A stretch of 64,000 nucleotides of DNA from Candidatus Omnitrophica bacterium UBA6253 (GCA_002441245.1 DJVP01000011.1:53295-117294), one strand, 5' to 3'. Positions 26,524 to 62,053 are shown, counted from the stretch's first letter. Numbers and translations: made by a program. The notes: generated by a model from the letters alone, not told the origin.

Positions 26524-26537
26524 CGAAAGGAGCAGAT

Positions 26538-31023: not shown

Positions 31024-32338
31024 GATTGTTTTAAAGGTAGAGAATATAGGCAAGCGCTACGAGATTTACGAAGCACCTCATCATCGTCTCTTGCAGACTC
31101 TTTTGCGTGGCCGTAAGCAGTTCTATAAAGAGTTTTGGGCGCTTAAGGATGTTTCATTTGAAGTAAAAAAAGGTGAGACCGTTGGCATTATTGGTCGTAA
31201 TGGTTGCGGTAAAAGCACGCTTCTCCAGATTATTGCTGGTACACTTGCGCCGACCACCGGAAGTGTGAGTGTAAATGGTAAGGTTGCGGCTCTTTTGGAA
31301 CTTGGTAGTGGTTTTAATCCTGATTTCACAGGTAGGGAAAATGTGTATATGAATGGTGCGATTATTGGGTTGCCTAGGAAAGAAATGGAGCGAAAGTTTG
31401 ATGGAATCGCTGCCTTTGCTGATATTGGTGAATTCATCGATCAACCGGTCAAGATTTATTCTTCTGGTATGTTTATTCGGTTAGCGTTCGCAGTGACGCT
31501 AAGTTTGAATCCTCAAATTCTGATCGTTGACGAAGCTCTGAGCGTTGGGGATATGTTTTTTCAAGCGAAATGCATGCTTCGAATGAAAAATCTTATTGAT
31601 GGAGGGACAACGATTTTATTTGTAAGTCACGATATGTCTGCTATCAAGAATCTGTGTTGTAAAGCAATTTTTGTAAGCGAAGGACGCATCAAAAAAGTTG
31701 GAAATACTAATGAAGTTGTAGATGCCTATCATTCAAGTTGTCATGGAAGCGATTCCAATAGTAATCGAATAGAAACCATTAATCAAATTTCTCCAATAAA
31801 AGATAAAAACTCTCAAGATCAGACTACTAAAAATGATCTTATTATTAAAGAATACGAAGTTGATGTTACCTATGCAAGATTTTCTAAGGAGCAACGGTAT
31901 GGAGACGCGAAAATTCAAATCGATTCTGTTAGAGTGTTTGATGAAAATGATAAGCCTCTTAAGGAGATTAATTTGTTTCAAAAAGTAAAGATTAAAGTAT
32001 GTCTGAATTTTAAGGAAATATCAAGCGATGAATACAATGTTGGGTTTTTGGTCCGTAATCTTAATGGTTTGGAGCTTTTCGGAGCGCGAACTGCTGAATT
32101 ATGTCCTGGAATTCCCTATAAACATAAAGGAGAAAAAGGTATAGTATGGTTTTCTTTTACAAATTACCTTTCTTCTGGGGGTTATACGTTGGCTGTTGGA
32201 GTAAGTAACAAAAGAGAGGTTAATGTTATTGAATATTATGATTGGATTAATAATGCTTTCGTTTTTAAATCCATAAGTCCCCCCAATATGGCTTGGGGAT
32301 GTTTTTATAATAATATGGATGAAATTGTGATTGTTTAA
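31007..32338 (+). CDS. wzt: Polysaccharide ABC-transporter ATP-binding protein with C-terminal carbohydrate-binding extension (Wzt-type)
   Basis: Walker A GRNGCGKST, signature YSSGMFIRLAFA, Walker B ILIVDEALSVGD. The extra ~190-aa C-terminal beta domain is typical of Wzt O-PS terminator-binding modules. Confidence 0.85.
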   Translation: MLMSSEIVLKVENIGKRYEIYEAPHHRLLQTLLRGRKQFYKEFWALKDVSFEVKKGETVGIIGRNGCGKSTLLQIIAGTLAPTTGSVSVNGKVAALLELGSGFNPDFTGRENVYMNGAIIGLPRKEMERKFDGIAAFADIGEFIDQPVKIYSSGMFIRLAFAVTLSLNPQILIVDEALSVGDMFFQAKCMLRMKNLIDGGTTILFVSHDMSAIKNLCCKAIFVSEGRIKKVGNTNEVVDAYHSSCHGSDSNSNRIETINQISPIKDKNSQDQTTKNDLIIKEYEVDVTYARFSKEQRYGDAKIQIDSVRVFDENDKPLKEINLFQKVKIKVCLNFKEISSDEYNVGFLVRNLNGLELFGARTAELCPGIPYKHKGEKGIVWFSFTNYLSSGGYTLAVGVSNKREVNVIEYYDWINNAFVFKSISPPNMAWGCFYNNMDEIVIV

Positions 32339-32416
32339 ATTAATTTCTTTATAAAAAAATATTAAAGCTATAGCTATTACTCGAATTAACAAGAAAGATT
32401 GACCATATATTAAATC

Positions 32417-33841
32417 ATGGCAGAAAAAATATACTTATGCTCTTTTAATCAGATGAATCTAGGGATTCGACAGATATACGCGTATTTGTTGAATGCTAAA
32501 ATATATTCTGAAATGATATTCGTTAATCAGAAAACAGATATTGTGGAAATGGCAAAGCATCTTTTGTCATCTAAAATTGTTGCCTTTAGTGTTTTTACTG
32601 ATGAAATGCCACTGGCGCGGAAGCTGTCTGCTGAAATAATGCGTAATCGGAAAAAGAAACATCCGATTATTGTATTTGGCGGGCATCATCCAACCTTGAA
32701 CGCTGGGGAGTGTTTAGAGTTTTGTGATTGTGTTGTGCGAGGTGAAGGTGAAGAAACATTATTAGATATTTGCAGAGATTCTCAAAAAATAGTAAATATT
32801 AAAAACATATCATATCTAGCTGGAGAATCTATTGTTGAGAATCCATTACGTGAGTTGGTGTCTGATCTGGATGAGTTGCCTTTCCCGAATTATGATGATT
32901 TAAATACACTCGCGACCTATCATATAATGACTAGTAAGGGGTGTCCGTTTAATTGCTCATATTGTTATAATAATGCATATCGGAAAATGTATGCCGGTAA
33001 AGGTAAGTATATTAGATTTAAAAGCATACCGTATGTCATAAAAGAATTAGAACGGGCTAAACAAATGTTCCCAGATATTAAAACTGTAGAGATTATGGAT
33101 GATAATTTCTTTATGCGAAAAATTGAAGAGATTATGTTATTTGCAGAGGAGTATAAAAGTAAGATTAGCTTACCGTTTTTTTGTTTAGCGAATCCAACGT
33201 ATGTTACAGGGGATAAGCTTCAAGTATTGAAAAGCGCGGGATTGGAACGCATTCAAATTGGAATTCAAACGGGTAGCGAAAAAATTAATTACTCTATTTA
33301 CGACCGAAAAATTCCGAATAAAAAGATTCTGGAGTGTGCGTATCTCTGTAAGAAATATTCTATTGCAGTTTTTTACGATTTAATATTCAATAACCCGTAT
33401 GAGTCAAATAATGATGTTAAAAAAACATTGCAGATACTTTTGAGAATACCAAAACCTTTCCATCTTCAGGGATTTAATTTAATTTTTTATCCGAACGCGG
33501 ACATAGCAATGAGAGCATTGCATGATGGGTATATACTTCCACGTACATCCGAACATGAAGAAGTAAATACTATTCAGAATGATAACAACAGCCCACTACG
33601 TTTTAGTAACTCAATTGGAAGCCCTTTTTGGAAAACTCATTATTCAACAAGCTCAAAAAAAATAAAATTAAATAATCTAATTGCTCTTTCTCAGTTCCTC
33701 CCGAATTATATAATACGTTTATTGTCTATTTTACCTGGTGATGTGTTGCAGCATGTGCGTTATTGGTTAAAAATTAAGAAAAAACTTATACCCGAAGAAG
33801 AATATCTTTTACGGTTGCTTTCAAGTAGCAAAGTTGAATAA
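32417..33841 (+). CDS. B12-binding-domain radical SAM protein (paralog 1)
   Basis: An N-terminal cobalamin-binding-like domain and a CX3CX2C motif (GCPFNCSYC). Confidence 0.8.
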   Translation: MAEKIYLCSFNQMNLGIRQIYAYLLNAKIYSEMIFVNQKTDIVEMAKHLLSSKIVAFSVFTDEMPLARKLSAEIMRNRKKKHPIIVFGGHHPTLNAGECLEFCDCVVRGEGEETLLDICRDSQKIVNIKNISYLAGESIVENPLRELVSDLDELPFPNYDDLNTLATYHIMTSKGCPFNCSYCYNNAYRKMYAGKGKYIRFKSIPYVIKELERAKQMFPDIKTVEIMDDNFFMRKIEEIMLFAEEYKSKISLPFFCLANPTYVTGDKLQVLKSAGLERIQIGIQTGSEKINYSIYDRKIPNKKILECAYLCKKYSIAVFYDLIFNNPYESNNDVKKTLQILLRIPKPFHLQGFNLIFYPNADIAMRALHDGYILPRTSEHEEVNTIQNDNNSPLRFSNSIGSPFWKTHYSTSSKKIKLNNLIALSQFLPNYIIRLLSILPGDVLQHVRYWLKIKKKLIPEEEYLLRLLSSSKVE

Positions 33842-33914
33842 ATGAAATGGATGTTGTAAAAATTGGTTAATTTGTATGTATCTTATCTGAACAAGTGGAC
33901 TTATAGGGTAATTT

Positions 33915-36428
33915 ATGGATAGAAAGACATTTTATCAACTATATATTGAGCATACTGGGAAGATATCAGATAAGTGGTCACTGTATTTGACCGAATACGA
34001 ACGCTTGTTTAATGATTATCGTGATAAACCAATACGTTTGTTTGAAATAGGCATACTAAATGGCGGTTCGTTGGAAATTTGGGTTAAATATTTTCTAAAA
34101 GCCGAAAAAATTATCGGTTGTGATATAGATAACAAATGCAGGAATCTTCAGTATAGCGACCCTCGGATTTCGGTTATTGTGGGGGATGTCAACTCAGAGG
34201 ATTGTCAGCAGCGCGTTCTTCAACAGTCGTCGTTCTTTGATATTATTATTGATGATGGCTCGCACATATCTAGCGACATTGTGCATTCTTTTGCTCGGTA
34301 TTTTCCATACTTGAATTATGGAGGTATTTATGTGGTTGAGGATATTCATTGTAGTTATTGGGATGATTCGGGAGGTGGAATATACAACCCCTATTCACCG
34401 GTTAGTTTTTTTAAAAGATTGGTGGATATCGTTAATTATGAGCATTGGCGGAATAATAAGCCTAGGGGTAATTTACTGAAAGAATTTACGGCGCATTTTG
34501 GTGCGAATTTTATTGATGACGATCTTGCAAGAATCCATTCTATCGAGTTTGTGAATTCGTTATGTATAATTAAGAAACTTCCTTTAGAAAAGAATGAAAT
34601 CGGTAAACGAATAGTTGTTGGATCAGAGGAGTATGTGACATCGGGGTGGAAACGCTATAATTCTGCTTTGATTCAAGATATGGAAATGAACGTTATAGAT
34701 GATGAGTTTTTAGACGTTTTTGCGTTGATTCGCGCGGTTACCGAATACAATGGGAAAATACTTAATCTCGATAATGAATTACGAAATATTTATAATTCTA
34801 AGAGATGGAAGCTAATTATGAAGGTTGCCGCGCCTGTTTTTTTTGTAAAACAGATTATGTATAAGATTAGGGATTTGATCAAATTAAATAAGGTTAGGTT
34901 TTTTCTGAAGCGTTGTGTATATTTGGTACGCCGTTTTTTTAAAATAACAGCTGATTTAGGATTAGGAGTTGCTATTACTGAAGTCTTTTCAACCCTAGCT
35001 GGTAATAACTACTCATTAATTAAGCTGCCTTTTGTTCCTTTGCCTGAAGATAGCATTTCTACATTAAAATATTCAGAGTCTATTGATGGTCTGAATGCTA
35101 TTTTTGAACGATTAAAGCTTAATTTTGATGCTAAAAAAGTTTGGGAATTACTTTTATCCCATTTAAATTCTGTTGTTTTATATGAATTACAGACAGAGAT
35201 TCTTATGCTCGAGCGATTTTTTTTGTCCGTCAATAGTAAATCTTCCTGCGAATTGATTCAGGCGTCAATTTTGCCTCAACTGAAATCAACCCGGCGTAAG
35301 AGGAATATTCTTTTTGTTACCTCTTTGTTTCCCAACCCGAATCACGGTGGCGGAGGGAGGGTGGTTGATTTTATTAAGGCTTTATCTAAGGATAACGCAA
35401 TCTATTTATATTCTTTTTACAACCCATTTGAAGATCGCCATGCTTATCAGCAAGTCTTTCGGTATTGCGCAAAGATTAGGCGAGTTCATTCCTGGAATTC
35501 TACAAAAAACCTGGTATATATTCGAGGATGGTTAAAAGATATTTCGATAGATATAGTTCATTATGAGTGGCCCGAATCTTTGATTAATTACGATCCATCT
35601 TTAGGAAAAGTTCATATTTTTACATATATGGAAGCTGTGAGTTTGCGATTATTAATGGAGATATCAAAGGAAAGTCCCCTTAGCTTGTTATGGATTGATA
35701 AACTAAAAAAATTAATTCATTATTTAAAAATAGAATTGGTGGATGCTTCGGTTATGGATGCTCGCGTTGCTGTTACGACTAAAGATGCTGAGTTTTTCAA
35801 AAGTCTTGTTCCGGAATTGGAGTATACCATTTTAAATCATGGCGTTAATATGAATGAGTTTTGTTTGCCTGATGTTAAACCAATGCCGTATACACTTGTT
35901 TATGTTGGGAATTTTTTGCATCCCCCTAACGGAGATGCGGTTCGGTTCTTTTTTGATTCAATTTGGGAAAATGTTTTACAAAATGTCCCACAGACAAAAA
36001 TTTATATAGTAGGAGCTCATCCTCCTAAATGGATTAAGTTGCTGTCGAAGCAGCGTAATGTGTTTGTTACAGGGGAAGTCTCTGATATTCGTCCATACAT
36101 ACAAAGGGCTTCAATATGTATTGCTCCTTTGATCTCTGGTGCAGGATTGCGAGGTAAAGTTATTCAGTATGCTTCATTACGAAGAACATTTGTCGCGACG
36201 TCTATTGCGGTATCAGATTTAGCTTTAGTTGATGGTAGTGATTATCTCAAGGCTAATACTGGTAAAGAGTTTTCAGAAAGCCTGTTAGCGTTATTGAAAG
36301 ATGGAGAGCGTGCTCGTAAAATGGGTTTAAGGGCGTATGAAACAGTTGTAAAATATTATGATAGCTATCGTTTGACTAATTATCTACTAAGGATTTATGA
36401 CCGGTTAGATGAGAGGATGCATGTTTAG
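33915..36428 (+). CDS. Multidomain protein: N-terminal class I SAM-dependent methyltransferase (CmcI/'cephalosporin hydroxylase'-like), a long helical middle region and a C-terminal GT4 glycosyltransferase
   Basis: 837 aa. The N-terminus has [13 protein letters not shown]...IIIDDGSH. The C-terminus has the GT4-like EX7E region ...[11 protein letters not shown]. Confidence 0.65.
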
Positions 36429-36987
36429 AATACATAAAAAGATTTTTCATTTTATAGAGGCACTGTTGTATTATATTGCTAACCACTGGATAACGGATAT
36501 CCCTTCTTTTCATGTGCGGCATTGGTATCTGCGGAGGGTTTTAGGTTTTTTTATTGGGAATAGATCTAGTATTCATATGGGGGTATTTGTAACTGGCAGA
36601 AATATTAAACTGGGGAATTGCGTGGTTATTAATCGCGGTGTTTATCTAGATGGAAGAATTGGAGTAGAGATTCATAATAATGTAAGTATCTCGCCGGAAG
36701 TTTATATTATGTCAATGGAACATGATCCTAATAGTCCAGTTTTTGCTACGCGTGGTGGAGTTGTAATTATAGAAGATTATGTTTGGATTGGTGCTAGGGC
36801 TATTATTTTGCCTGGGGTGCATATAGGCGAAGGAGCTGTTGTTGGGGCTGGTGCGGTAGTTACCCGTGATGTATTACCGTATCGAGTTGTAGCAGGGATG
36901 CCGGCTCGGGTTATTGGCGAAAGAAATCGTCAAATTGATTACCAGTGTGTTTATTTCCCTTGGTTCGATACCGATATTCAAAGATAA
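36409..36987 (+). CDS. Hexapeptide-repeat (LbH) O-acetyltransferase
   Basis: Repeated [LIV]GxxxxI hexapeptides ([25 protein letters not shown]). Maltose/galactoside acetyltransferase-like. Confidence 0.7.
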
Positions 36988-37049
36988 ATAGAATAATAAC
37001 CAATAGCATAATTAAGTACGTTAAAAATAACCTAAATTGAAGCATTAAT

Positions 37050-37904
37050 ATGTCAGGGATATTAACAGCAAGAGAGTGTTTGTTATATTATCAGCGTTGC
37101 CGTGAAATTTCACTATCTGAGGTGCAACAGAATATCGCTCAATTTCCTAAGGTGAGTATTCTTGTTATCACTTACAATAATCTTCTTGTGAGCCGGCTTT
37201 GTCTGAGCAGTATTTACTGTAATACTACATATCTTAATTTCGAAGTTATTGTAGTAGATAATGCATCAACCGATGAGACACCAATTTGGCTTCAAGCTTA
37301 CGCCAAGACTCATTCTAATTTAAGAATAATTTTTAATCCGGTTAATCGTGGATTTTCGTCCGGGAACAACCAGGCTGCGTATGAAGCAACAGGGGAATAC
37401 TTAATTTTTTTAAATAATGATACTATTGTGACACGGGGATGGGTTGAGAAACTCTTGATGCATATGCAAAGCGATTCTAAAATCGGTTTAGTAGGTCCGG
37501 TAACCAATGCCACTGGGAATGAAGCTCGTATACCTGTAAACTACAATACTCCGGAAGAGATGGAAGCTTTTGCAGCGGATCGGTCACGGGTTATGTTTAT
37601 GCAGTCGTTTGATATCCGTATGTTGGCTTTCTACTGCGTAATGGCACGAAAAGAGCAATATGAAACTTTAGGTGGTTTGGACGAGCGTTATTTGGTCGGC
37701 ATGTTTGAAGATGATGATTTGGCAGTTCGTTATCATCAGGCAGGATTACGGGTAATATGCGCGGAAGATGTTTTTATCCATCATTTTCAAGGCGTGTCAT
37801 TTGATAAGCTTGATAATAAAAAGTATCAAAAAATATTTGATGAAAATCGAAGAAAATATGAGGAGAAATGGGGATGCGTGTGGAAACCTTACCAGTTTCG
37901 ATAA
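37050..37904 (+). CDS. Family 2 glycosyltransferase
   Basis: VSILVITYNN...VDNASTDET with a DxD-like NNDT motif. GT-A fold. Confidence 0.8.
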   Translation: MSGILTARECLLYYQRCREISLSEVQQNIAQFPKVSILVITYNNLLVSRLCLSSIYCNTTYLNFEVIVVDNASTDETPIWLQAYAKTHSNLRIIFNPVNRGFSSGNNQAAYEATGEYLIFLNNDTIVTRGWVEKLLMHMQSDSKIGLVGPVTNATGNEARIPVNYNTPEEMEAFAADRSRVMFMQSFDIRMLAFYCVMARKEQYETLGGLDERYLVGMFEDDDLAVRYHQAGLRVICAEDVFIHHFQGVSFDKLDNKKYQKIFDENRRKYEEKWGCVWKPYQFR

Positions 37905-38027
37905 AATTTTCTTGTGTGGATATTTTTGTATAAAAATACGGATTTTGTTTTAGTTGTGGCTGAATTTCGCTATTGAATGTGGATGAAGAAAGATTATTAA
38001 TTAAAGACACAAATAAAAAACTCTTCT

Positions 38028-39725
38028 ATGAAGAAGATCATCCCTAGCATAAAGATAATAACAATCATTTTAGTTGTTGCTTCATTTTTTGCGTTATTTT
38101 ATTCCTCTGTAGTTTTGAACAAGAATATTTCTTTTACTAATGATGAGCTCTGGGATTATATGCCAGCAGTTGCTATTGTCAATAATGAATTTATTGTCGA
38201 AAGTCAAGGGATCAATGTGCTTGGTTATAAAATTCCGCTTGTTACTGGTCCTTATCAAGGTGCACTAAAGACTTGGATAGCTGCACCCATAATTTATGTA
38301 TTTGGAACTTCTCCCCTTGCTTTACGAACTTTAAATATTGTTACAGCTCTTTTATTTTTATTTGCTTTTTATTGGGCACTACTAGGACTGTTGGAAAAAA
38401 AATATGCAATTTTAGTTTTCCTAATACCTTTTTTCGATGGCAATTTCTTATTGACCTCTCCATTAGATTACGGGTCTTTCTTATTTCAGAGTATTTTTAT
38501 TGTTCTTGGATTTGGATGTATTTTCCGTTTTTTTATTTTAAAAGACATTAGGTATCTTTGGTTGCTTTCATTATTTACTGGATGTCTATTAGCGCACAAA
38601 TTAACTTCTGTTCCGATTGTATTATTGTTTATTTTTATTTTTTTATTTGGTAGTCTTATTTTTCGTATGTTTCTGAAAGATAATGGTTGGATTTCCTCAA
38701 CTGTTAATATATTGCTTGTATCTTTTGTACTTTTTTTATTACCTTTAATTCCACATATAATTTATTTTTTGAAATCAAATGGACTTAGTTCATTTCTTGA
38801 AATGACAAAAAGCCATGAAAATATTGGGTTTTGCAGTAAAGTATTAAATAACTTGTTGTATTTAGGTAGTTCTGGCTCTAGCAATGGCCTTTATTGGTGT
38901 AGGAGTCTAATTGGGGATATGAATTTTTCTCCGAAGTTTGGATTATTCACATTTGCCTATGGTATCTACGGCATTTATTGCATTTCAATCTTACTACTAA
39001 TTTTATATAGCAATATTAAAATTGATTTAAGAAGATTTGTTATAGGTGGTTTTATATTATTTATGTTGTCAATTTTTTCTTTTTCTTTGTTCAAAGGTCT
39101 CAATAGGCCTTGGCATTACCAATTATTATATCCCTTTTTATGGTGTCAGGCGATTGTTTCCTTTGCTTATATGGTTGATTTCTTGTCAAGGAAGAATTTA
39201 ATTTGCAAGGTAATCCTTTATATAATTTATTTTATTCTTGGGATAGGATTGATTGTATCTTCTTTTTTTTCATATTGTTTGTTGGAAAGAATTGAGCAAA
39301 GTAAGGGAATGTCAATAACATCTCCTGTATTTAATGATTTTAGTAAATTATTGAAAAGACATAAATTTCAAAAGATATATAGCATAAATTACTCTTTAGG
39401 TTGGCCATTATATGTTGTGCTTGAAAGAAAATTACATATAGTAGATTTTGCTTTCTCTCAAATTGATAGTAATATATTATCTAGTATAATGACAGATCTG
39501 TTGGGCAACCAGAATGTTTGCTTAGTTTACCGCTATTCTAATTATAGCGGGGAAGATGCTAATTGGACTAAATGGTTGAATAAGGAATCTAGTATATATA
39601 AAATCAAAGATTTTATAAGCAAACATCAAGATAAATTGAAAGTCATCCGTATTAATAATGAATTTAATAAAGATCGAGAAGATATAGAGTTTGTTTTGGT
39701 ATATGCAAACAAAGGTAAATCTTAG
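38028..39725 (+). CDS. Polytopic integral membrane protein (~13 TM) of the glycan locus; function unknown, possible GT-C-like or polymerase-like
   Basis: 565 aa, highly hydrophobic and Phe/Leu/Ile-rich, with a soluble C-terminal ~150 aa. Confidence 0.45.
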   Translation: MKKIIPSIKIITIILVVASFFALFYSSVVLNKNISFTNDELWDYMPAVAIVNNEFIVESQGINVLGYKIPLVTGPYQGALKTWIAAPIIYVFGTSPLALRTLNIVTALLFLFAFYWALLGLLEKKYAILVFLIPFFDGNFLLTSPLDYGSFLFQSIFIVLGFGCIFRFFILKDIRYLWLLSLFTGCLLAHKLTSVPIVLLFIFIFLFGSLIFRMFLKDNGWISSTVNILLVSFVLFLLPLIPHIIYFLKSNGLSSFLEMTKSHENIGFCSKVLNNLLYLGSSGSSNGLYWCRSLIGDMNFSPKFGLFTFAYGIYGIYCISILLLILYSNIKIDLRRFVIGGFILFMLSIFSFSLFKGLNRPWHYQLLYPFLWCQAIVSFAYMVDFLSRKNLICKVILYIIYFILGIGLIVSSFFSYCLLERIEQSKGMSITSPVFNDFSKLLKRHKFQKIYSINYSLGWPLYVVLERKLHIVDFAFSQIDSNILSSIMTDLLGNQNVCLVYRYSNYSGEDANWTKWLNKESSIYKIKDFISKHQDKLKVIRINNEFNKDREDIEFVLVYANKGKS

Positions 39726-39812
39726 TAATGATGATGGTGATTTTACTGAACTATTTGACAAGCATAAACATGAATCTTGGATTTGAGTATGAAAATTAAA
39801 TATTGAAAGGCA

Positions 39813-41195
39813 TTGAGTGTGAAGGTTTTATTGGTGATTCCTATTAACAGAAGTTATGTAATAACACCTAGCCTAGGACTGGGATACATTGCTTCGGTTT
39901 TAAGATTACAAGGCCATAAGGTAAAGATTTTACATTGTATTAAGGAAAAGTTTACTTTTGGTGACTTTGATAATTATATCAAACAAAATAATTTTGATTT
40001 TATTGGAATACAAATGTTTACTTTTGACAGCACTTCGGTTAAGCGGCATTTGGATATAATTAAAAAGAATAAACCATCTACTACTACAATATTGGGGGGG
40101 TACCATCCTTCCGGTGATCCGCATGAAATTTTGAAAAAGTTCCCACAAGCGGATTTTGCTTTTATAAGTGAAACAGAGATAGCTTTTCCATTTTTCTTAG
40201 AAGAAATAAATAAAAAGGATCCTAATTTAAGTATTGTGCCAAATCTTATATGGAGGAACGGTGATAAAATAATTATTAATTCTCTAAAGATAATTGATGA
40301 TTTAGACGAAATTCCTTTTCCGGCATGGGATTTGATGGATCCAAGAACTTACCCCGAAGCTCCTCATGGCGGATTTTTTAAAAGTTTCCCTACCGCTCCG
40401 ATAATTATTACTCGGGGTTGTCCTATGGAATGTACGTTTTGTGCGGGTAAATCTATTACTACTAAAGAAATAAGAAAAAGATCAATTAATAACGTGATAG
40501 AAGAAATGAAATTCTTGAAGGTAAAATATGGTGTTAATGATTTTTTAATTGAAGATGAAAATTTTACGCTTCATAAAAACCTAGTTTATGATTTCTGCAA
40601 TCAGTTAATAAATCAACAACTAAAAGTTACTTGGAGCTGTCCTTCTGGGGTGAGATTAGATACGTTAGATTTGGCCATTTTGCAATTGATGGAAGAATCT
40701 GGCTGTCACTCTCTTGCCGTTGGTGTGGAATTCGGTTCGCAACGAATACATGATTTAACAAAGAAAAATTTAACTATCAAAATAATAAAAGAAAGGATAT
40801 CTTTGTTTCAGCATACTAAAATTAAAGTAACTGGTTTTTTTATGTTTGGTATCCCAGGAGAGACAGAGCAGGAGATGATACAAACGATTAAATTTGCCAA
40901 AGCTTTGAACATTAACCGGGCGCAATTTAATAATTTTATGCCTTTACCGGGTTCGTCATTATATGCTCAACTTAAACACGATGGTATGGATAGTATTGAT
41001 TCCGACCATTTCTTCGTTCACGATGTTGGTTATGTGCCGCAAGGTTTGACTAGAAAACGACTTAAGAATATTCAGCGTAGGGCTTATTTAGAATTTTATT
41101 TAAGACCTAAAATAATCGTTGGTTTGATTAAAGAAATTACTTCATTTAGACAACTATGTAGATTGATCAAAAGATTTATGGATGGTCTTACGTAA
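39813..41195 (+). CDS. B12-binding-domain radical SAM protein (paralog 2)
   Basis: CX3CX2C motif (GCPMECTFC) after an N-terminal B12-like domain. TTG start. Confidence 0.8.
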   Translation: MSVKVLLVIPINRSYVITPSLGLGYIASVLRLQGHKVKILHCIKEKFTFGDFDNYIKQNNFDFIGIQMFTFDSTSVKRHLDIIKKNKPSTTTILGGYHPSGDPHEILKKFPQADFAFISETEIAFPFFLEEINKKDPNLSIVPNLIWRNGDKIIINSLKIIDDLDEIPFPAWDLMDPRTYPEAPHGGFFKSFPTAPIIITRGCPMECTFCAGKSITTKEIRKRSINNVIEEMKFLKVKYGVNDFLIEDENFTLHKNLVYDFCNQLINQQLKVTWSCPSGVRLDTLDLAILQLMEESGCHSLAVGVEFGSQRIHDLTKKNLTIKIIKERISLFQHTKIKVTGFFMFGIPGETEQEMIQTIKFAKALNINRAQFNNFMPLPGSSLYAQLKHDGMDSIDSDHFFVHDVGYVPQGLTRKRLKNIQRRAYLEFYLRPKIIVGLIKEITSFRQLCRLIKRFMDGLT

Positions 41196-41291
41196 AATGT
41201 TAGTTTATAATAAACGTATTTTTCTGGATTTAATTGTTTGGCGTAATTCTACGAGAGTAAGTCTGTAGATCTGCTATTTAAAGAGGGGGCT

Positions 41292-42011
41292 ATGAATATA
41301 AAAAAATTATCAATTATCATTCCCGCTTATAACGAGTGTAATACTATTCACTTGGTACTCAACAAAATTAAAGATGTGATTTTAATAAATGGAATTACAA
41401 AAGAAGTAATTATCGTAAACGATTGCTCAACAGATGATACGGAGAGAGCTATAGAAAACTATATTGCAGCCAATCCATCTTTAAATATTCAGTATTTTAA
41501 ACATGAAATAAATCAGGGAAAAGGTGCTGCGTTGCATACAGGTATTTCTAAAGCAATTGGGGATTATTTAGTAATTCAAGATGCAGACCTTGAGTATGAC
41601 CCATATGAATATAACCTGTTACTTAGCCCTGTTATTAATGGATTTGCTGATATTGTATATGGTTCAAGGTTAATGGGAGGAAACCCACATAGGGTTTTAT
41701 TTTTTTGGCACAGTATTGGCAATAAATTTCTGACCTTTATTTCAAATACGTTTACAAACTTGAATCTGACTGATATGGAAACATGTTATAAACTTTTCAA
41801 AAGAGAAATAATTCAAAATATTAAGTTAAAAGAAAAAAGATTTGGTTTTGAACCAGAAGTAACTGCCAAAATAGCTCGAATTCCTAATCTTCGTTTATAT
41901 GAGGTTGGAATTTCCTATTATGGCAGGACTTATGCAGAAGGTAAGAAAATCGGATGGAAAGATGGTTTAAGGGCTATTTATTGTATAATCAAGTATAATA
42001 TATTTATATAG
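41292..42011 (+). CDS. GT2 polyprenol-phosphate sugar synthase (DPM1/ArnC-like)
   Basis: 239 aa, LSIIIPAYNECNTI...VNDCSTDDT...IQDADLEYDP (DxD). Its small size is typical of Dpm1-like enzymes. Confidence 0.7.
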   Translation: MNIKKLSIIIPAYNECNTIHLVLNKIKDVILINGITKEVIIVNDCSTDDTERAIENYIAANPSLNIQYFKHEINQGKGAALHTGISKAIGDYLVIQDADLEYDPYEYNLLLSPVINGFADIVYGSRLMGGNPHRVLFFWHSIGNKFLTFISNTFTNLNLTDMETCYKLFKREIIQNIKLKEKRFGFEPEVTAKIARIPNLRLYEVGISYYGRTYAEGKKIGWKDGLRAIYCIIKYNIFI

Positions 42012-42026
42012 AAAATTAACAATTTA

Positions 42027-44534
42027 ATGAGAAAAAATATCGAAATATTTCTTGGATTTTTCCTTGTTTTAGGAGTTACGCTTACTTCTTGGGGGCTTTC
42101 GCATATGTCATGGCCGTCTGTTTTGCCTTGGACTAATATAAATGCGCTTACTTGTTACTTGATTTTTCTTGGTGTCTGTACTGGATTGGTCATCTTTGGT
42201 TATTTTTGGAGTAGAAGAAGTGCGTTGCTCACAGGTTTTGCTCTTGTTGCTGGAATTGTTTTATTAACGGGTAATTTGTGGCCTTTTTTTGTTGTTTTAT
42301 GGTTTGTTGTTGCTTCTGTTCTATTTGGGAGATATATATTGATAGTGTTTCGTATAATGTTAGATGAAGATAGCTGGTTGATAAGTTTCTTAGTCGGGGG
42401 TGGCATTTATGGGATTGCTGTTGGTCTTTTAGCCCATTTTCCTGTGAATTATCCTGGATTATACGGAATTGCTCTTGTATTGCCAATAATATTAAGTTGG
42501 CGTACTGTTTTAGGGGTAGGCAAAAGATTTTTAAGTCGAATTGCTCAAAATTGTATTCCTCAGGTTGCATTCAAAATTAATATTTTAGATGTGACTATTG
42601 TAGTTGTCTCATTAGTTTACTTTGTAGTAGCATTGATGCCAGAATTGGGTTATGACGCGCTTGCAACCCATTTGTTTGTTCCGGCGCAACTTGCAACAAG
42701 ACATCAATGGGGTTTTGATGCTACAAAATATGTTTGGGCAGTTTTTCCTATGTTGGGCGACTGGATTTTTTCTATTGGCTATATGTTAGCTGGTGAGACT
42801 GGGGCACGATTAATTAATGTGGTATTTATTTTTACACTTGCTTGCTTAGTCCGGAAACTTGTACTTTGGGCAGGTGGTTCAATTGTTGGTGTAAGGTGGG
42901 CAATACTCATTTTTTTATCTACGCCACTAACTTTTACCGAAGGCAGTTCTCTTTATATTGATTCAATTTGGGCGTCATTTGTTGTTGCTGGCGTATGGGG
43001 AATCCTTAGTTTTTGTTCTGATTATAGTAAACCAAAATCTGAATTGCCATTGGCAGGATTATTCCTGGGGCTTGCACTGTCCACGAAGGCTGTAACATTT
43101 CTCATATTGCCCGTCTTGCTCTTAATAATGATATTGCGTTATAGATCTTGGTATAAATCGGTAAGTTTACAATCTTTGGCTATTGGTTTTAGTTTATTTT
43201 TCGTTTTATCTGCAATTCCTTATATAACAGCTTGGTTTTTGACTAATAATCCGGTTTTCCCATTTTTTAATGCTTTCTTTAAGTCTCCTTATTATCCTTC
43301 TGTATCGAACTTTGATACAACCGCTACAGTATATGGACAGGGAATAACTTGGGATATTCTGTACAGGTGGACATTTGAAACAGGAAAATATTTGGAGGCT
43401 AGTGCTGGTGCATCTGGTTTTCAGTGGCTATTATTCTTTCTACCTGTAGGATTAATTTTGATTGTTATAAAACAATATAAGGGTATTGCTATGTTTTTAG
43501 TTGCAATATCGATTGTTGTCTTAGTATTTAATTACGTAAGCTACTTGAGATATGTTTTTCCTGCTTGGGTAATATTCTCAGCAGCTATAGGTGTAGCTTT
43601 AAGTATTAAGTTTTCAAAATATATTATCATTAGAGGTACATATTATATATTGGTGGTTGCTACTATTTTATTGAACCTTCTATTTTTAGGAGCTGGAGCA
43701 TTTTATAGAGATTTTCCTTTAGAAGCTATCCTTAACGAAAATAATAGAATGCATTATTTAGTAGATAATATGCCTATCAGATATGCAGTTAAAGTAGTTA
43801 ATGATCTTAATATTGACAGGTCACCTGTTGCTGTTTTTGCTGAGGCTAGGACTGCAGGTTTAGCGTCTGACGCACTCTATCCAGCCTGGTATAATTGGAG
43901 TTTTCAAAAAGAAATTATATCTATTCAGACTGAAAAGGATGCAGCTGAAGTTTTATTTAAAAGGGGTGTTAATTTTGTTATTCTAGATTCTAATTGGCTG
44001 GGAACTAATTGTTGCCCGGATGAAGGTATGAGGCAAAAGTTAATAGAAAATATTACTGAGCCAATTACTCAATACCATTCTATTGGGGTTAGAAAAATCA
44101 AGTCTATGGGGATTGGGACAATTAAAACCTCCAACTTTTTCAAAACAGAGCTACTCGTTAATTCCAATTTTGTATCTGCAAGCGCCTGGAATTTTCCTGT
44201 TGTAACAAATTATGATTCTAAAAATGGCGTTATCTCAGCTAGTGTTGATTCTCCTGTAACTCAATATGTTAGTGTCATTCCTGGAAGATGCTATCTTTAT
44301 TCCATTGTAGCCCGCTCTGCTAAAGAAGGAGTCCAGGGGCGTATGCAAATTAATTGGTTAAACAAAAGCGGAAAGTTTATTACTACTAATATTCAAGTTT
44401 ATAATTGTTCGCCAACTTGGACTGAGCATACAATGGAAATAATTGCTCCACCAGACGCCTCAGGTGCAGTAGTTTATGTTGGTGGACATTCGTTGATTCC
44501 AGTGGAGTTTAAAAGTTGTTCTTTACGAGAATAA
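42027..44534 (+). CDS. Large GT-C-like membrane protein (~14 TM, ArnT/PMT-like) with a C-terminal ~270-aa soluble beta-rich domain
   Basis: 835 aa. It follows the DPM1-like synthase directly, which is the architecture of lipid-linked-sugar-dependent periplasmic glycosyltransferases. Confidence 0.55.
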   Translation: MRKNIEIFLGFFLVLGVTLTSWGLSHMSWPSVLPWTNINALTCYLIFLGVCTGLVIFGYFWSRRSALLTGFALVAGIVLLTGNLWPFFVVLWFVVASVLFGRYILIVFRIMLDEDSWLISFLVGGGIYGIAVGLLAHFPVNYPGLYGIALVLPIILSWRTVLGVGKRFLSRIAQNCIPQVAFKINILDVTIVVVSLVYFVVALMPELGYDALATHLFVPAQLATRHQWGFDATKYVWAVFPMLGDWIFSIGYMLAGETGARLINVVFIFTLACLVRKLVLWAGGSIVGVRWAILIFLSTPLTFTEGSSLYIDSIWASFVVAGVWGILSFCSDYSKPKSELPLAGLFLGLALSTKAVTFLILPVLLLIMILRYRSWYKSVSLQSLAIGFSLFFVLSAIPYITAWFLTNNPVFPFFNAFFKSPYYPSVSNFDTTATVYGQGITWDILYRWTFETGKYLEASAGASGFQWLLFFLPVGLILIVIKQYKGIAMFLVAISIVVLVFNYVSYLRYVFPAWVIFSAAIGVALSIKFSKYIIIRGTYYILVVATILLNLLFLGAGAFYRDFPLEAILNENNRMHYLVDNMPIRYAVKVVNDLNIDRSPVAVFAEARTAGLASDALYPAWYNWSFQKEIISIQTEKDAAEVLFKRGVNFVILDSNWLGTNCCPDEGMRQKLIENITEPITQYHSIGVRKIKSMGIGTIKTSNFFKTELLVNSNFVSASAWNFPVVTNYDSKNGVISASVDSPVTQYVSVIPGRCYLYSIVARSAKEGVQGRMQINWLNKSGKFITTNIQVYNCSPTWTEHTMEIIAPPDASGAVVYVGGHSLIPVEFKSCSLRE

Positions 44535-44571
44535 ATATTTTATGTAGGAAAACCAAAAATGAGGAGATTTT

Positions 44572-45588
44572 ATGATTAGTACTACTGAAAATAATCGTAT
44601 TGCAGTTGTTATCCCGTGTTACCGTGTTACGAAGCATATCCTTGATGTTATTACAGGGATTGGGCCTGAGGTATGGCGTATCTATGTAGTTGACGATAAG
44701 TGTCCTGATGAATCTTGGAAATATGTAGAAACAAACTGTAATGATTTGCGTGTTGTAATATTACGGCATGAGGTTAATCAAGGAGTTGGTAGTGCAGTAA
44801 TGACTGGTTATAAGGTGGCAATTGCAGATGGAGCTGATGTTATTGTAAAGATTGATGGTGATGGGCAGATGGACCCAAGTTTAATTCATGCGTTTACTAC
44901 ACCTATTTTGGTAGGGGAAGCGGATTACTCAAAAGGAAACCGTTTTTTTAACCTTGAGAAAATTCGCGCTATGCCTAAGGGGAGGCTTTTTGGTAATGCG
45001 GTATTATCATTTATAACTAAAATTTCTTCTGGTTATTGGGATTTATTTGATCCTTCTAATGGGTATACCGCAATTCATGCTGATGTAGCTCGACATTTGC
45101 CATTTGAAAAAATCAGCTCACGTTATTTTTTTGAAACCGATATATTATTTAGACTCAATACGCTACGTGCGGTTGTGGTCGATATACCTATGGATGCTCA
45201 ATATGGTAGTGAAGTTAGTAACCTTAAGATCCCAAGAATTATTGGTGAGTTTTTTATTAAAAATGCTCGCAATCTTTTAAAGCGAATCTTTTACAACTAT
45301 TATTTGCGTGATATGTCAATTGCATCTATAGAGTTGCCTTTGGGTTTGTTACTGTTTGTTTCTGGTTGTGGTTTTGGTGTTTACCATTGGGTTAATTCAT
45401 TGCAAATAGGTAGTAATACATCGGCTGGTACGGTAATGCTAGCCGCACTGCCAATTTTAATGGGGTCACAACTCATATTAGCTTTTCTTGGATATGACAT
45501 CGCGAACGTGCCGCGTAGACCTTTGCATAAGTTGCGACAGTTTTTAAAAAATACTTCGACGCATACTGGGTTATCAAGCGAAACATGA
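44572..45588 (+). CDS. GT2 glycosyltransferase with two C-terminal TM helices (GtrB/ArnC-like polyprenyl-phosphate glycosyltransferase)
   Basis: VVIPCYRV...VDDKCPDES...KIDGDGQMDP, plus C-terminal TM helices (LPLGLLLFVSGCGFGVY; MLAALPILMGSQLILAFL). Confidence 0.75.
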   Translation: MISTTENNRIAVVIPCYRVTKHILDVITGIGPEVWRIYVVDDKCPDESWKYVETNCNDLRVVILRHEVNQGVGSAVMTGYKVAIADGADVIVKIDGDGQMDPSLIHAFTTPILVGEADYSKGNRFFNLEKIRAMPKGRLFGNAVLSFITKISSGYWDLFDPSNGYTAIHADVARHLPFEKISSRYFFETDILFRLNTLRAVVVDIPMDAQYGSEVSNLKIPRIIGEFFIKNARNLLKRIFYNYYLRDMSIASIELPLGLLLFVSGCGFGVYHWVNSLQIGSNTSAGTVMLAALPILMGSQLILAFLGYDIANVPRRPLHKLRQFLKNTSTHTGLSSET

Positions 45589-47045
45589 AATCTGCAAATT
45601 TAGGTAATATGGCTATGTTAAGCGAAAAAAAGATCTATTTACTATATCCACCTATATCCAAAATGGAGAGATATTCTTCTGAAATTGGAAGTGCCGGGGG
45701 TGAACAAATTCCACTTGGGATTTTTTATCTCGCGTCTTATCTTAGGAAATTTGATTTTCAGGTGAAGGTCACTGATGCCGAAGCATTGAAGCTTGCATCT
45801 GCTGAGATAGTTTCAGAAATCGCTGATTTTGCTCCTAAATATGTTGGGATTAGTTCAACAACTGTGGCTTTTCACAGGGCTATTGAAATAGCTGAGGATA
45901 TACGAAAAACTAATCCTGAAATCATTATTATTTTAGGTGGTCCCCATGTAACCTCTAATCCTGAGCATGCACTTTCATCGGGGCTATTTAATTATGGAGT
46001 GCTCCGCGAGGGCGAAATTACTTTAATCGAATTACTGCAAGCATTGAACGAAAACAAAAATCCAAATACAATCTCTGGTATAGCATATCTCGATAAAAAT
46101 AAAAAACTGATAGTTACCTCGCCTCGAGAATATATTAAAAATCTTGATATTCTTCCATTTCCTGCATTTGATTTATTGCATGACCTGAATTTATACAAAC
46201 CGCAACCTTCAAACTATAAGACTCTTCCCGTAATTAATATGATTACTAGTCGCGGATGTCCAGGATTATGTACTTTTTGCGACAATAATACTTTTGGTAG
46301 AAATTATAGGAAGCGTTTAGCTGAGAACATCGCTGAAGAGATAAAATACCTGATACAAGAATTTAGTATTCGTGAATTTTTCTTTGTTGATGATACATTC
46401 TTAATTGATAAGGCTCGTATTTATAGACTTTTTGAGATTCTTAAACGGGAAAATATTTCCTTTTATTGGACTTGCGCAAGCCGGATAAATGATGTAGATT
46501 ATGAATTACTGAAATTCATAAAATCCAAGGGGTGTTGGCATATTTCTTTTGGGATTGAATCTGGAGATGAAAATATATTAAAGGTTATTAAAAAGAATAT
46601 TTCTTTGGAAAGGGTTACTGAGGTAATAAAATGGTGTAAGCAGTTAGGAATTAAAACAAAAGGTTTTTTTATTCTCGGGCATCCAACCGAAACGCTTGAA
46701 ACACTTGAAAAAACTATTAAACTTGCATGTAAATTACAGCTTGATGATATTGTAGCTACTATAAATACACCTATACCAGGATCGGTGCAGTATGCAGAGG
46801 CACTTAATTACGGGGCTATTGATAAAACGGACTGGACGCAATATAATTATTGGCGTCCAGTTTTTGTGCCGAATGGGCTTACCAAGGAAATATTATTAGA
46901 AAAGCATGGGGAGATATACCGGAAATTTTACTTGCGTCCACGAATTCTACTGCGATATTTTTTTGGATTCTTTGGAAAAGGAGGATGGAGAAGATTCTTG
47001 AATATCTCTAAGGCGAGTTTTTTTATATTTAAAAAGAACAGTTAG
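45585..47045 (+). CDS. B12-binding-domain radical SAM protein (paralog 3)
   Basis: CX3CX2C motif (GCPGLCTFC) after an N-terminal B12-like domain. Confidence 0.8.
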   Translation: MKSANLGNMAMLSEKKIYLLYPPISKMERYSSEIGSAGGEQIPLGIFYLASYLRKFDFQVKVTDAEALKLASAEIVSEIADFAPKYVGISSTTVAFHRAIEIAEDIRKTNPEIIIILGGPHVTSNPEHALSSGLFNYGVLREGEITLIELLQALNENKNPNTISGIAYLDKNKKLIVTSPREYIKNLDILPFPAFDLLHDLNLYKPQPSNYKTLPVINMITSRGCPGLCTFCDNNTFGRNYRKRLAENIAEEIKYLIQEFSIREFFFVDDTFLIDKARIYRLFEILKRENISFYWTCASRINDVDYELLKFIKSKGCWHISFGIESGDENILKVIKKNISLERVTEVIKWCKQLGIKTKGFFILGHPTETLETLEKTIKLACKLQLDDIVATINTPIPGSVQYAEALNYGAIDKTDWTQYNYWRPVFVPNGLTKEILLEKHGEIYRKFYLRPRILLRYFFGFFGKGGWRRFLNISKASFFIFKKNS

Positions 47046-47089
47046 TGTCTAGCTGAAAGACCTATTAACAACCAATTAAAAGGTGGACA

Positions 47090-48753: not shown

Positions 48754-48802
48754 TATCAGTTTTTATTGAAATTTAAGCTTCGGATTGCCAAAGATGTAGG
48801 CT

Positions 48803-49543: not shown

Positions 49544-49564
49544 CTAGATACGGAGGTTATATCC

Positions 49565-49810: not shown

Positions 49811-49874
49811 GTAGTATTAAGTTTTTCGTAATTCGTAACCTTCCATAAATTACAACCAAGTTTAAAAACTTATT

Positions 49875-50960: not shown

Positions 50961-50994
50961 GTAGAGGAGTAGATGTTAAATCAAGGATTTCACA

Positions 50995-52815: not shown

Positions 52816-52819
52816 AGTA

Positions 52820-53926: not shown

Positions 53927-53927
53927 T

Positions 53928-58360: not shown

Positions 58361-58363
58361 AGA

Positions 58364-61130: not shown

Positions 61131-61175
61131 ATGATGTTTGATGGACGACTGAAAGTAATCTAAAGAGGAGAGAAA

Positions 61176-62048: not shown

Positions 62049-62053
62049 AATCT

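Follow-up and report, generated by a model that had tools for sequence, protein, structure and literature searches.

A Wzm/Wzt (Wzt_C) glycan locus in the metagenome-assembled genome of an uncultured Candidatus Omnitrophota bacterium holds three B12-binding radical SAM ORFs, and we put at roughly 0.5 the probability that two of these (rSAM2 and rSAM3) modify monosaccharide donors while these are linked to lipid, ahead of periplasmic transfer, with the other (rSAM1) belonging to a backbone and termination module. The window, by which we mean the whole stretch of DNA that was analysed, comprises 64,000 nucleotides. The observations that carry this reading are the domain content of the encoded proteins, the architecture of the locus, and gene neighbourhoods that are conserved across phyla.

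The three ORFs (rSAM1, 32417..33841; rSAM2, 39813..41195, with a start that is probably at 39819 because its homologues are of 458 aa; rSAM3, 45585..47045) lie on the + strand, as do the export, glycosyl- and acetyltransferase, and ligase-family genes described below. Each couples a B12-binding domain (PF02310; 55.4, 62.8 and 77.0 bits, respectively, against a gathering threshold of 32.1) to a radical SAM core (PF04055; 80.7, 87.1 and 110.1 bits, threshold 29.5), and each carries a CX3CX2C motif (GCPFNCSYC, GCPMECTFC and GCPGLCTFC) whose cysteines are invariant across two family alignments. This pairing of B12-binding and radical SAM domains makes them enzymes of the class B type, with the use of cobalamin predicted. 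In these respects the sequence-only reading, which had placed three such ORFs here and assigned both domains to them, was borne out in all three cases; its proposed classification by TIGR04072 together with the two Pfam models held for the latter, whereas TIGR04072 (lipid-biosynthesis B12 radical SAM) matches all three at 76-125 bits, where its cut-off is 360. The description of the enzymes as paralogous is apt at the superfamily level only, as pairwise identities of 24-30% indicate three separate families rather than recent duplicates. The homologues of each number in the hundreds to thousands, and the ORFs are therefore real genes. The rSAM1 family is rare and divergent (best homologues 40-52% identical), orthologues of rSAM2 (50-79% identical) come from bacteria and archaea, and rSAM3 belongs to a highly conserved family of many phyla, with 2330 homologues that are 55-87% identical across them. 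The notion of three copies of one activity gives way, then, to three separate conserved families in three separate modules.

Four parts of an ABC-transporter-dependent O-polysaccharide system are found in the window: wzm, the ABC-2 permease of a polysaccharide exporter (30178..31023; PF01061, 68.8 bits), wzt, whose product is an ABC ATPase that ends in a carbohydrate-binding domain (31007..32338; PF00005 and PF14524 Wzt_C, 87.3 bits), an initiating phosphoglycosyl transferase (55006..56403; PF02397 Bac_transf, 220 bits) and a membrane protein of the Wzy_C/O-antigen-ligase family (56400..57581; PF04932, 70.4 bits). Many sugar-nucleotide enzymes are encoded as well. The earlier claim that the radical SAM genes are interleaved with glycosyltransferases in such a locus stands: wzm and wzt lie directly upstream of rSAM1, and between the three ORFs are a GT4 fusion (33915), a GT2 (37050), a GT-C (38028), a second GT2 (41292), a PMT-type GT-C (42027) and a further GT2 (44572). 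In the four closest rSAM1 contexts, the window among them, rSAM1 is directly downstream of wzt (4/4) and is followed by a methyltransferase/glycosyltransferase, and wzm is also present wherever the contig reaches upstream (the window and two others). In locus L174, a wzm homologue (47% identical to that of the window) lies upstream of the rSAM1 homologue. The gene that follows rSAM1 in the window (33915..36428) encodes a candidate polymerase or terminator, an N-terminal methyltransferase-like domain (PF13578 Methyltransf_24 at residues 44-144, 21.7 bits, below the gathering threshold) fused to a C-terminal GT4 (PF13692, 67.4 bits, residues 660-796); in homologous loci, methyltransferase and GT1 are either separate genes or parts of one 996-aa MT-GT1-GT2 fusion. 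Beyond it lie a hexapeptide-repeat O-acetyltransferase resembling WcaF (36409..36987; PF00132; 85 bits with the NF007797 WcaF family, below cut-off) and the GT2 at 37050..37904 (PF00535, 103 bits), which shares 46% identity with the GT2 portion of a fusion protein encoded in L174. It is reasonable to postulate that wzm, wzt with its Wzt_C, rSAM1 and the methyltransferase-GT fusion form a backbone, termination and export module, in which rSAM1 would probably alter the repeat unit or a terminal cap recognised by Wzt_C.

The partner of rSAM3 in the window is a GtrB/DPMS-like GT2 (44572..45588; PF00535, 58.3 bits) with two predicted C-terminal membrane helices (residues 248-268 and 285-308), preceded by a PMT-family GT-C glycosyltransferase of 835 aa (42027..44534; PF02366 PMT, 31.8 bits, gathering threshold 22.7) that shows approximately 17 hydrophobic segments in a hydropathy scan. 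Homologues of this GT2 (27-69% identical) adjoin rSAM3 orthologues, and the GT-C is weakly similar to PMT_2-like proteins found beside rSAM3 orthologues in Planctomycetes. Among 25 loci whose rSAM3 orthologue is 49% or more identical and is flanked on either side by 2.5 kb or more of sequence, a clustered GT2 lies within 2.5 kb of this gene in 18, a GT-C in 14, and both in 11; over 272 kb of flanking sequence, the partner GT2 cluster was never encountered more than 4 kb away. The gene order GT2, (DUF2304), rSAM, GT-C recurs in Bacteroidales (where DUF2304/GacJ follows the GT2), Nitrospirota, Geobacter, Syntrophales, Desulfomonilaceae, Planctomycetes and Patescibacteria. Housekeeping genes are frequent neighbours of this cassette, which comes without sugar-nucleotide genes. 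The window itself lacks a DUF2304 gene.

The surroundings of rSAM2 repeat this arrangement, with the GT-C (38028..39725) on one side and, on the other, a soluble GT2 of the AglJ/DPM1/PpgS type (41292..42011; PF00535, 110.7 bits), a candidate polyprenyl-phosphate-sugar synthase and likely partner of rSAM2. Homologues of this GT2 (45-54% identical) adjoin rSAM2 orthologues, a GT2 being the immediate neighbour in four loci; of seven contexts of rSAM2 orthologues that were examined, two are made up of DNA-repair genes and have no glycosyltransferase in the vicinity. Against the AglJ, PpgS, PgfS and ArnC models, the GT2s at 41292 and 44572 give matches below the cut-offs only. The polytopic membrane protein at 38028 (about 10 hydrophobic segments by hydropathy scan) has no match in a direct Pfam search and is called a divergent, PMT_2-like GT-C only through its homologues: when aligned with 41 of these from phmmer, 23 of the 42 sequences match PF13231 PMT_2 (best E 7e-12), and in the first loop of the family D39 is invariant and E40 nearly so. 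Its alignment to the GT-C at 42027 by hhalign is weak (probability 22%), and its single-sequence AF2 model (pLDDT 44) is unusable. Relatives of this protein are encoded directly upstream of B12-binding radical SAM genes in four loci, in one of which a PMT_2 GT-C directly precedes an rSAM2 relative. The GT-C component of a three-component decoration system is accordingly found at 42027, where PF02366 is above threshold, and via homologues at 38028.

From these neighbourhoods we infer a substrate (a polyprenyl-phosphate sugar), an order of steps and a chemistry. The locus would make a cell-surface polysaccharide that is exported by the Wzm/Wzt ABC transporter, and rSAM2 and rSAM3 would each serve in a three-step module for side-branch decoration. 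The GT2 (41292 or 44572) would work at the cytoplasmic face and attach a monosaccharide to polyprenyl phosphate, the radical SAM enzyme would remodel the lipid-linked sugar in the cytoplasm, and after flipping the GT-C (38028 or 42027) would move the remodelled sugar onto the exported glycan, or possibly onto protein; the TPR-domain GT-C partners could mean that proteins, instead of O-polysaccharide, are the target of glycosylation. The remodelling would most likely be methylation of an unactivated carbon, with a ring contraction or cyclisation like that of HpnJ or calditol synthase as the alternative. The conserved cassettes of other organisms suggest that sugars are remodelled while on the lipid carrier, although gene adjacency does not separate a polyprenyl-phosphate sugar from a nucleotide sugar or a finished polymer as the substrate. 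Only tentatively, and as something short of probable, do we extend this to a general proposal: that the cassette made up of a polyprenyl-phosphate-sugar synthase (GT2), a cobalamin radical SAM enzyme and a GT-C, in many bacterial phyla and some archaea, performs radical remodelling of the lipid-linked monosaccharide donor before transfer (as C-methylation, or as a ring contraction that yields a carbasugar or cyclitol), with two such modules here and the third radical SAM enzyme tied to an O-polysaccharide cap or terminator. If true, the cassette would define a new step in envelope glycobiology, namely the radical remodelling of a donor prior to its transfer outside the cell; we found no published description of such a cassette, or of such a lipid-linked-sugar step, in the searchable literature.

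It is rather unlikely, in our estimation, that all three enzymes are instead cobalamin-dependent C-methyltransferases of nucleotide-activated sugars or of the growing cytoplasmic polymer (cf. GenK and GenD1), in which case the O-polysaccharide would carry several C-methyl sugars and no special tie to lipid-linked donors would exist. The cobalamin radical SAM enzymes characterised so far are mostly methylases (review PMC13459092), and the methylases MgmA, TsrM, CysS and TokK are among the structural neighbours of the rSAM3 model (AF2, pLDDT 82), whose top Foldseek matches are class B radical SAM structures. The many sugar-nucleotide enzymes of the locus are also in keeping with such substrates, as is the tie of rSAM1 to the backbone and export module rather than to a GT2/GT-C pair. 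However, this explanation does not account for a compact rSAM3 cassette that lacks sugar-nucleotide genes and often sits among housekeeping genes, nor for an architecture in the partner GT2s like that of polyprenyl-phosphate-sugar synthases. Furthermore, no NCBIfam curated cut-off is reached by any of the three, those of the methylase families KedN5, PhpK, TsrM, HpnR, RiPP C-methylases and MgmA included (for rSAM3, in bits against cut-off: PhpK 160/600, TIGR03975 125/282, MgmA 131/360, HpnR 106/650, KedN5 79/700). The sequence-only reading had envisaged multiple C-methylations, or another radical tailoring, of the glycan or its lipid carrier; the conserved gene neighbourhoods favour the carrier stage, and the C-methylations were an assumption that the curated methylase families do not back.

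Also unlikely is that the lipid-linked sugar is indeed the substrate and the chemistry is not methylation, with rSAM3 and/or rSAM2 performing a ring contraction, carbocyclisation, dehydration or oxidation and so forming a head group of the carbasugar, cyclitol or deoxy kind, along the lines suggested for HpnJ, calditol synthase, OxsB and AprD4. The best sub-threshold NCBIfam matches of rSAM3 are HpnJ (TIGR03471, nearly full length, 239 bits) and BchE (TIGR02026, 213 bits), and both are within the top four for rSAM2 (165 and 150 bits; rSAM1 scores 90 and 57). As these best matches are not methylases, C-methylation by the three enzymes is a reasonable prior only. In the Foldseek ranking for the rSAM3 model, the sugar diol dehydratase AprD4 stands first, followed by the ring-contracting OxsB; AprD4, which shares this fold, is not known to us to use cobalamin, so that cobalamin binding cannot be read from the fold alone. 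HpnJ follows the GT2 HpnI in its pathway and acts on an amino sugar that is linked to lipid, and a polysaccharide deacetylase gene occurs both in the locus (50995) and near rSAM3 orthologues at two other loci. Nevertheless, every score is far under its equivalog cut-off (577.6 for HpnJ, 481 for BchE), the mechanism of HpnJ is itself unproven, and this reading calls for a GT-C that takes a ring-contracted donor, for which we know of no precedent. Identity with HpnJ or with BchE was rejected for all three proteins on these cut-offs and on context, the window having no hopanoid (hpn/shc), tetraether or photosynthesis genes, bacteriochlorophyll genes included. The 'BchE' labels borne by homologues in JGI are automatic annotations.

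It is very improbable that these enzymes, and rSAM3 especially, belong to a lipid or acyl-chain pathway (cf. the B12 radical SAM genes of ladderane and other lipid clusters) and have an acyl substituent or the carrier lipid, rather than a sugar, as their target, for although FabH-like (47090), SDR (48034), MTS methyltransferase (48803) and ACP-like (49565-49810) genes lie directly 3' of rSAM3 and TIGR04072 matches all three below its cut-off, a FabH or ACP homologue adjoins 0 of 80 rSAM3-family loci and the conserved partners of rSAM3 are a GT2 and a GT-C.

With regard to known systems, WbdD/WbdA of E. coli O8/O9a and WsaE of Geobacillus are chain-terminating methyltransferase-glycosyltransferase systems with Wzt carbohydrate-binding domains. 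The wzt with Wzt_C and the methyltransferase-GT fusion of the window resemble these capped, ABC-dependent O-polysaccharide pathways; unlike them, the window has rSAM1 between the two genes, an arrangement kept in its closest homologues, and we know of no radical SAM enzyme in a chain terminator. GenK and GenD1 (gentamicin), Fom3, TokK and CysS share the B12-binding domain and radical SAM core with our three enzymes, and as methylases of unactivated carbons they perform the reaction that is most common in this class. The similarity is nonetheless distant (PDB E-values of 1e-7 to 1e-10, with GenK, GenD1 and Fom3 likened by description only), and their substrates are soluble intermediates of antibiotics made by secondary-metabolite clusters, whereas the present enzymes lie in an envelope glycan locus.

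The combination of GT2, DUF2304 and GT-C is the experimentally defined arrangement of GacI/GacJ/GacL and PpgS/Rv3632, by which a polyprenyl-phosphate-HexNAc is made and then transferred to an ABC-exported polymer (bioRxiv 10.1101/180810). The GT2 and GT-C parts are common to the window and its orthologous cassettes, to these systems of Streptococcus pyogenes (group A carbohydrate) and Mycobacterium tuberculosis, and to Gtr and ArnC/ArnT; in each known case the GT2 makes a polyprenyl-phosphate monosaccharide, sometimes with a DUF2304 helper or a GtrA/DPMS membrane domain, and the GT-C transfers it outside the cytoplasm. None of these systems has a radical SAM enzyme, whereas here the gene for one stands next to those of the GT2 and the GT-C or separates them. 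A dedicated flippase of the Gtr, GacIJKL or ArnC-T kind (GtrA, GacK or ArnEF type) was not found among the ORFs of the window, where 32-47 kb is without unassigned gaps; three orthologous cassettes fuse a GtrA_DPMS_TM domain to the rSAM3-partner GT2. For a radical SAM enzyme on a lipid-linked sugar, the precedents are HpnJ, which converts BHT-glucosamine to the cyclitol ether after the GT2 HpnI, and the calditol synthase Cds (review PMC13459092). In HpnI/HpnK/HpnJ (the hopanoid cyclitol-ether system) and Cds, as proposed here, a radical SAM enzyme would remodel a sugar already attached to a membrane lipid by a glycosyltransferase, and no curated family scores higher with rSAM3 than HpnJ, yet the score is far below the cut-off. 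There, however, the sugar stays as the head group, whereas here the lipid would be a polyprenyl-phosphate carrier, from which the GT-C would pass the remodelled sugar on.

The three open reading frames singled out by the sequence-only reading as B12-binding radical SAM enzymes, rSAM1 (32417-33841, 474 aa), rSAM2 (39813-41195, 460 aa, with its start probably at 39819) and rSAM3 (45585-47045, 486 aa), all lie on the + strand, and each matches both PF02310 and PF04055 of Pfam above gathering thresholds. The CX3CX2C motifs were found in all three, and an alignment-based AlphaFold2 model of rSAM3 (pLDDT 82, pTM 0.80) had AprD4, MgmA, OxsB, TsrM, CysS and TokK as its best PDB neighbours in Foldseek, to which the class B Rossmann-plus-partial-TIM-barrel architecture is common; taken together, the domains, the motifs and these class B neighbours confirm the assignment. 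The accompanying description of the enzymes as paralogous is valid at the superfamily level only, as their pairwise identity is just 24-30%. All three stayed below every curated cut-off in NCBIfam, the highest scores being those of HpnJ (239 bits against a cut-off of 577.6) and BchE (213 against 481) for rSAM3, of a P-methyltransferase family (167 against 575) followed by HpnJ (165), ApyD and BchE for rSAM2, and of TIGR04013 (94 against 251) and HpnJ (90) for rSAM1. As a sequence search of the PDB likewise returned remote relatives only, the three belong to uncharacterised families of class B type. rSAM2 and rSAM3 may or may not be methylases: no other activity is as common in the cobalamin radical SAM class, whereas the nearest curated families (HpnJ and BchE) and the top structural match (AprD4) of rSAM3 are non-methylases. 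Methylases and non-methylases are separable neither by sequence search against solved structures nor by fold (Foldseek), and ring contractions, oxidations and cyclisations are also carried out by cobalamin radical SAM enzymes (PMC13459092).

The first 24 kb of the window, whose contig is also present in several metagenome assemblies, holds housekeeping genes (e.g. S1, TyrRS, Obg, ProA and RNase G). Their proteins match entries annotated as Candidatus Omnitrophota MAG, being identical to them or falling into shared clusters at 90% identity, and on this ground an anammox origin (Kuenenia S-layer glycan) is rejected. Genes of type IV pilus assembly lie at 1454-8734, 5' of the glycan locus: a PilM-like gene, a TPR lipoprotein and a PilQ/GspD secretin. 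From approximately 21 kb to the window end every large ORF reads in the + direction, and with few exceptions these ORFs are part of that locus, beginning with dTDP-sugar genes at about 21-24 kb (including a dTDP-glucose 4,6-dehydratase at 22794). Putative two-component signalling genes (25034-26906), which may regulate the glycan locus, interrupt it at 25-27 kb; they comprise a PAS histidine kinase (25399-26523) with a 122-aa ORF on either side (25034 and 26538), both of which look like receiver domains, and the group sits among sugar-nucleotide genes, just 5' of the exporter. A 248-aa ORF (28341-29087), without a Pfam family match even at E=10, separates an epimerase from a GDP-mannose dehydratase-type enzyme (29187), after which come wzm (30178), wzt with a Wzt_C domain (31007) and rSAM1. 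Between rSAM1 and rSAM2 lie an 837-aa methyltransferase-like/GT4 fusion (33915), a hexapeptide acetyltransferase (36409), a GT2 (37050) and a 565-aa polytopic protein (38028); between rSAM2 and rSAM3 lie a 239-aa GT2 (41292), an 835-aa PMT-family GT-C, or polytopic membrane glycosyltransferase (42027), and a 338-aa GT2 with two membrane helices predicted at its C-terminus (44572). Further 3' are FabH-like, SDR, methyltransferase and ACP-like genes (47090-49810), a deacetylase, a GT2 and two GT4 genes (50995-55013), a phosphoglycosyl transferase (55006) and a Wzy_C/ligase-family protein (56400). The final stretch (57584-63850) encodes a second sugar pathway, which may be a nonulosonic-acid or another keto-sugar branch: besides NeuB (61176) and a 598-aa TPP-dependent enzyme (62054), it has a nucleotidyltransferase, two epimerase/dehydratases and a metallo-beta-lactamase-fold protein. 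The TPP-dependent enzyme is an odd member for such a context. The G+C content falls from 40-45% in the housekeeping part (1-20 kb) to 29-37% across 32-52 kb, a drop of a kind common in variable surface-glycan loci, and this fall suggests that 32000-52000 is a surface-glycan island that is horizontally exchanged or fast-evolving. An Rfam scan of the window was negative for all RNA families, cobalamin riboswitches included.

We detected 2330 homologues of rSAM3, the closest typically 55-75% identical, in Bacteroidota, Nitrospirota, Desulfobacterota, Planctomycetota, Patescibacteria, Nanoarchaeota and other lineages; the closest relatives are from Bacteroidota MAGs and not from Omnitrophota. All ORFs neighbouring rSAM3 homologues in 80 genomic loci were clustered, and cassette membership was counted in 25 orthologous loci (identity at least 49%, flanks of at least 2.5 kb on each side). 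One GT2 cluster lay within 2.5 kb of the rSAM3 orthologue in 18 of these 25 loci, a GT-C-type polytopic protein was near it in 14, and the two occurred together in 11, while across 272 kb of flanking DNA this GT2 cluster was absent at distances greater than 4 kb from rSAM3 orthologues. Gene maps give the order GT2, DUF2304, rSAM, GT-C(TPR) in Bacteroidales, GT2, rSAM, GT-C in Nitrospirota, rSAM, GT2, GT-C in Geobacter, Syntrophales and Desulfomonilaceae, and PMT_2-like, GT2, rSAM in Planctomycetes, the small protein of these cassettes being DUF2304. The units are compact and often adjoin unrelated housekeeping genes. In three of the loci (L016, L017 and L018) long GT2s carry a GtrA_DPMS_TM domain, the architecture of a polyprenyl-/dolichyl-phosphate sugar synthase. 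The window counterparts of the cassette are the GT-C at 42027, the GT2 at 44572 and rSAM3 itself.

A link to a FabH/ACP lipid pathway as the conserved context of rSAM3 is rejected, since co-occurrence was 0/80 loci. In the window, rSAM3 is followed by genes for a FabH-like KAS III (47090), an SDR/FabG-like reductase (48034) and an MTS-type methyltransferase (48803). Next come an ACP-like ORF of 81 aa (49565-49810), with a DSLGQL motif and only a faint PP-binding_2 match, and a protein of 361 aa whose GNAT match is faint; this stretch (47090-50960), next to which lies the polysaccharide deacetylase at 50995, looks like a module that makes a short (hydroxy)acyl group and attaches it to an amino sugar.

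The surroundings of rSAM2, a family of about 1000 homologues with orthologues 50-79% identical in bacteria and archaea, are of a similar kind, with the membrane protein 38028 on one side in the window and the GT2 41292 on the other. The protein at 38028 has no direct Pfam match; an exhaustive phmmer search found 139 cluster representatives, and in an alignment of 42 sequences (the window protein and 41 homologues) 23 matched PF13231 PMT_2, with D39 of the first loop invariant and E40 present in at least 90%. On the strength of these matches and conserved acidic residues we read 38028 as a putative divergent GT-C. We do not rely on an hhalign comparison of this family with 42027, which gave a probability of only 22%, and a single-sequence AF2 model of 38028-39725 (pLDDT 44) was unusable. 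As the matches listed in a metagenome scan with rSAM2 were mostly distant B12-rSAMs (<45% identity), individual contexts were used instead. A GT2 similar to 41292 (45-54% identical) adjoins rSAM2 orthologues in four loci (L168, L123, L089 and L098), and the context of a 79% identical orthologue (P0130) continues with a 239-aa GT2 and two unannotated proteins. The gene order around an Omnitrophota orthologue is GT2, 469-aa protein, rSAM, GT4, PGT; a bona fide PMT_2 protein lies immediately 5' of a B12-rSAM in locus L086, and in three Elusimicrobia loci a 38028-like protein occupies this position. Two contexts misfit the glycan model: orthologues 56% and 72% identical to rSAM2 (L167, 8001-9392, and L171, 3590-4966) have DNA-repair surroundings, one adjoining ogt and uvrCAB and the other lying between lexA and a Y-family polymerase, beside a Radical_SAM/DUF4070 gene, and no glycosyltransferase is near either.

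In the case of rSAM1, the association is with the exporter. Its family is small and divergent (best homologues 40-52% identical), and in all four of the closest contexts (the window, P0249, P0248 and P0250) it lies immediately 3' of wzt, with Wzt_C confirmed in three of them and wzm also 5' wherever the contig reaches (the window, P0249 and P0248). On the 3' side of rSAM1 in these contexts are a methyltransferase and a GT1, as separate genes or as a fusion; in locus L174 the gene 3' of the rSAM1 homologue encodes a 996-aa MT-GT1-GT2 fusion, the GT2 part of which is 46% identical to the window GT2 37050. Wzt_C domains recognise a terminal cap that terminators such as WbdD or WsaE put on, and from this and the wzt-linked position we infer that rSAM1 acts upon the backbone repeat or its cap.

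For rSAM2 and rSAM3, we give roughly even odds (about 0.5) to a model in which both act on lipid-linked sugars, with the substrate and order of steps inferred from gene neighbourhoods only. The backbone would be made in the cytoplasm and exported via Wzm/Wzt, and side residues would be added by two Gac/Gtr-like modules using polyprenyl-phosphate sugars as donors. The two enzymes would remodel these donors on the cytoplasmic side of the membrane, which offers SAM and reductant, before the remodelled donors are flipped and transferred by the GT-C proteins.

The window is one case of a recurrent B12-rSAM/glycosyltransferase theme, loci with five to ten B12-rSAMs among glycosyltransferases being common in Patescibacteria, Elusimicrobia, Omnitrophota and DPANN archaea. 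Four metagenome contigs, in which these genes are packed with a few glycosyltransferase and sugar-dehydratase genes, are extreme forms of the window's pattern: L101 has about 10 in 21 kb (1-21335), L111 has 7, and L138 and L120 have about 5 each. In Candidatus Buchananbacteria (L168; JBAYGU010000003.1, 1-17440) five B12-rSAM genes of a glycan locus lie among GT4 and GT2 genes and include a 719-aa B12-rSAM/class I methyltransferase fusion; an 855-aa PMT_2 (GT-C)/Radical_SAM/SPASM fusion in the same locus is a predicted physical link of GT-C to radical SAM chemistry. We found no experimental study of such recurrent loci in the open-access literature. Cobalamin radical SAM enzymes are among the largest enzyme groups with mostly unknown functions, and to our knowledge antibiotic, cofactor and membrane-lipid pathways account for nearly all the members characterised so far. 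Specialists would not find it surprising that a glycan locus contains uncharacterised radical SAM genes; a cassette kept across many phyla, however, offers large families without a known role a specific hypothesis that can be tested. Should polyprenyl-phosphate sugars be the substrates of rSAM2 and rSAM3, this would be the first function for two families (about 1000 and >2000 homologues, respectively) and a chemically new step in the well-studied GT2/GT-C decoration scheme, and the products would be C-methylated or carbocyclic surface sugars that could resist glycosidases and alter phage or host recognition. As multi-B12-rSAM loci are common in the lineages named, the question concerns the chemistry at the surface of uncultured microbes, which are often host-dependent.

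No report tying a cobalamin radical SAM enzyme to polyprenyl-phosphate sugars or O-antigen decoration was found in the open-access literature, and the nearest precedents each share a part of the proposed scheme. GacI together with GacJ makes GlcNAc-P-undecaprenol, GacL moves the GlcNAc onto polyrhamnose exported by an ABC transporter, and the mycobacterial PpgS/Rv3632 pair is analogous (bioRxiv 10.1101/180810). The GT2, DUF2304 and GT-C that accompany rSAM3 orthologues in Bacteroidales are the very part set of GacI/GacJ/GacL, a system characterised by experiment, and decoration of the GacIJL, PpgS, Gtr and Arn types follows the same GT2/GT-C logic as here, although without a radical SAM enzyme. 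GenK-type sugar C-methylases belong to the same superfamily as rSAM1-3, but their context is a soluble antibiotic. HpnI/K/J and calditol synthase are proposed to apply radical SAM chemistry to a lipid-linked sugar, but with another family and another lipid. The donor remodelling proposed for rSAM2 and rSAM3 would be analogous in its logic to the action of ArnD on Und-P-Ara4FN, and to that of HpnK and HpnJ, which act after the GT2 HpnI.
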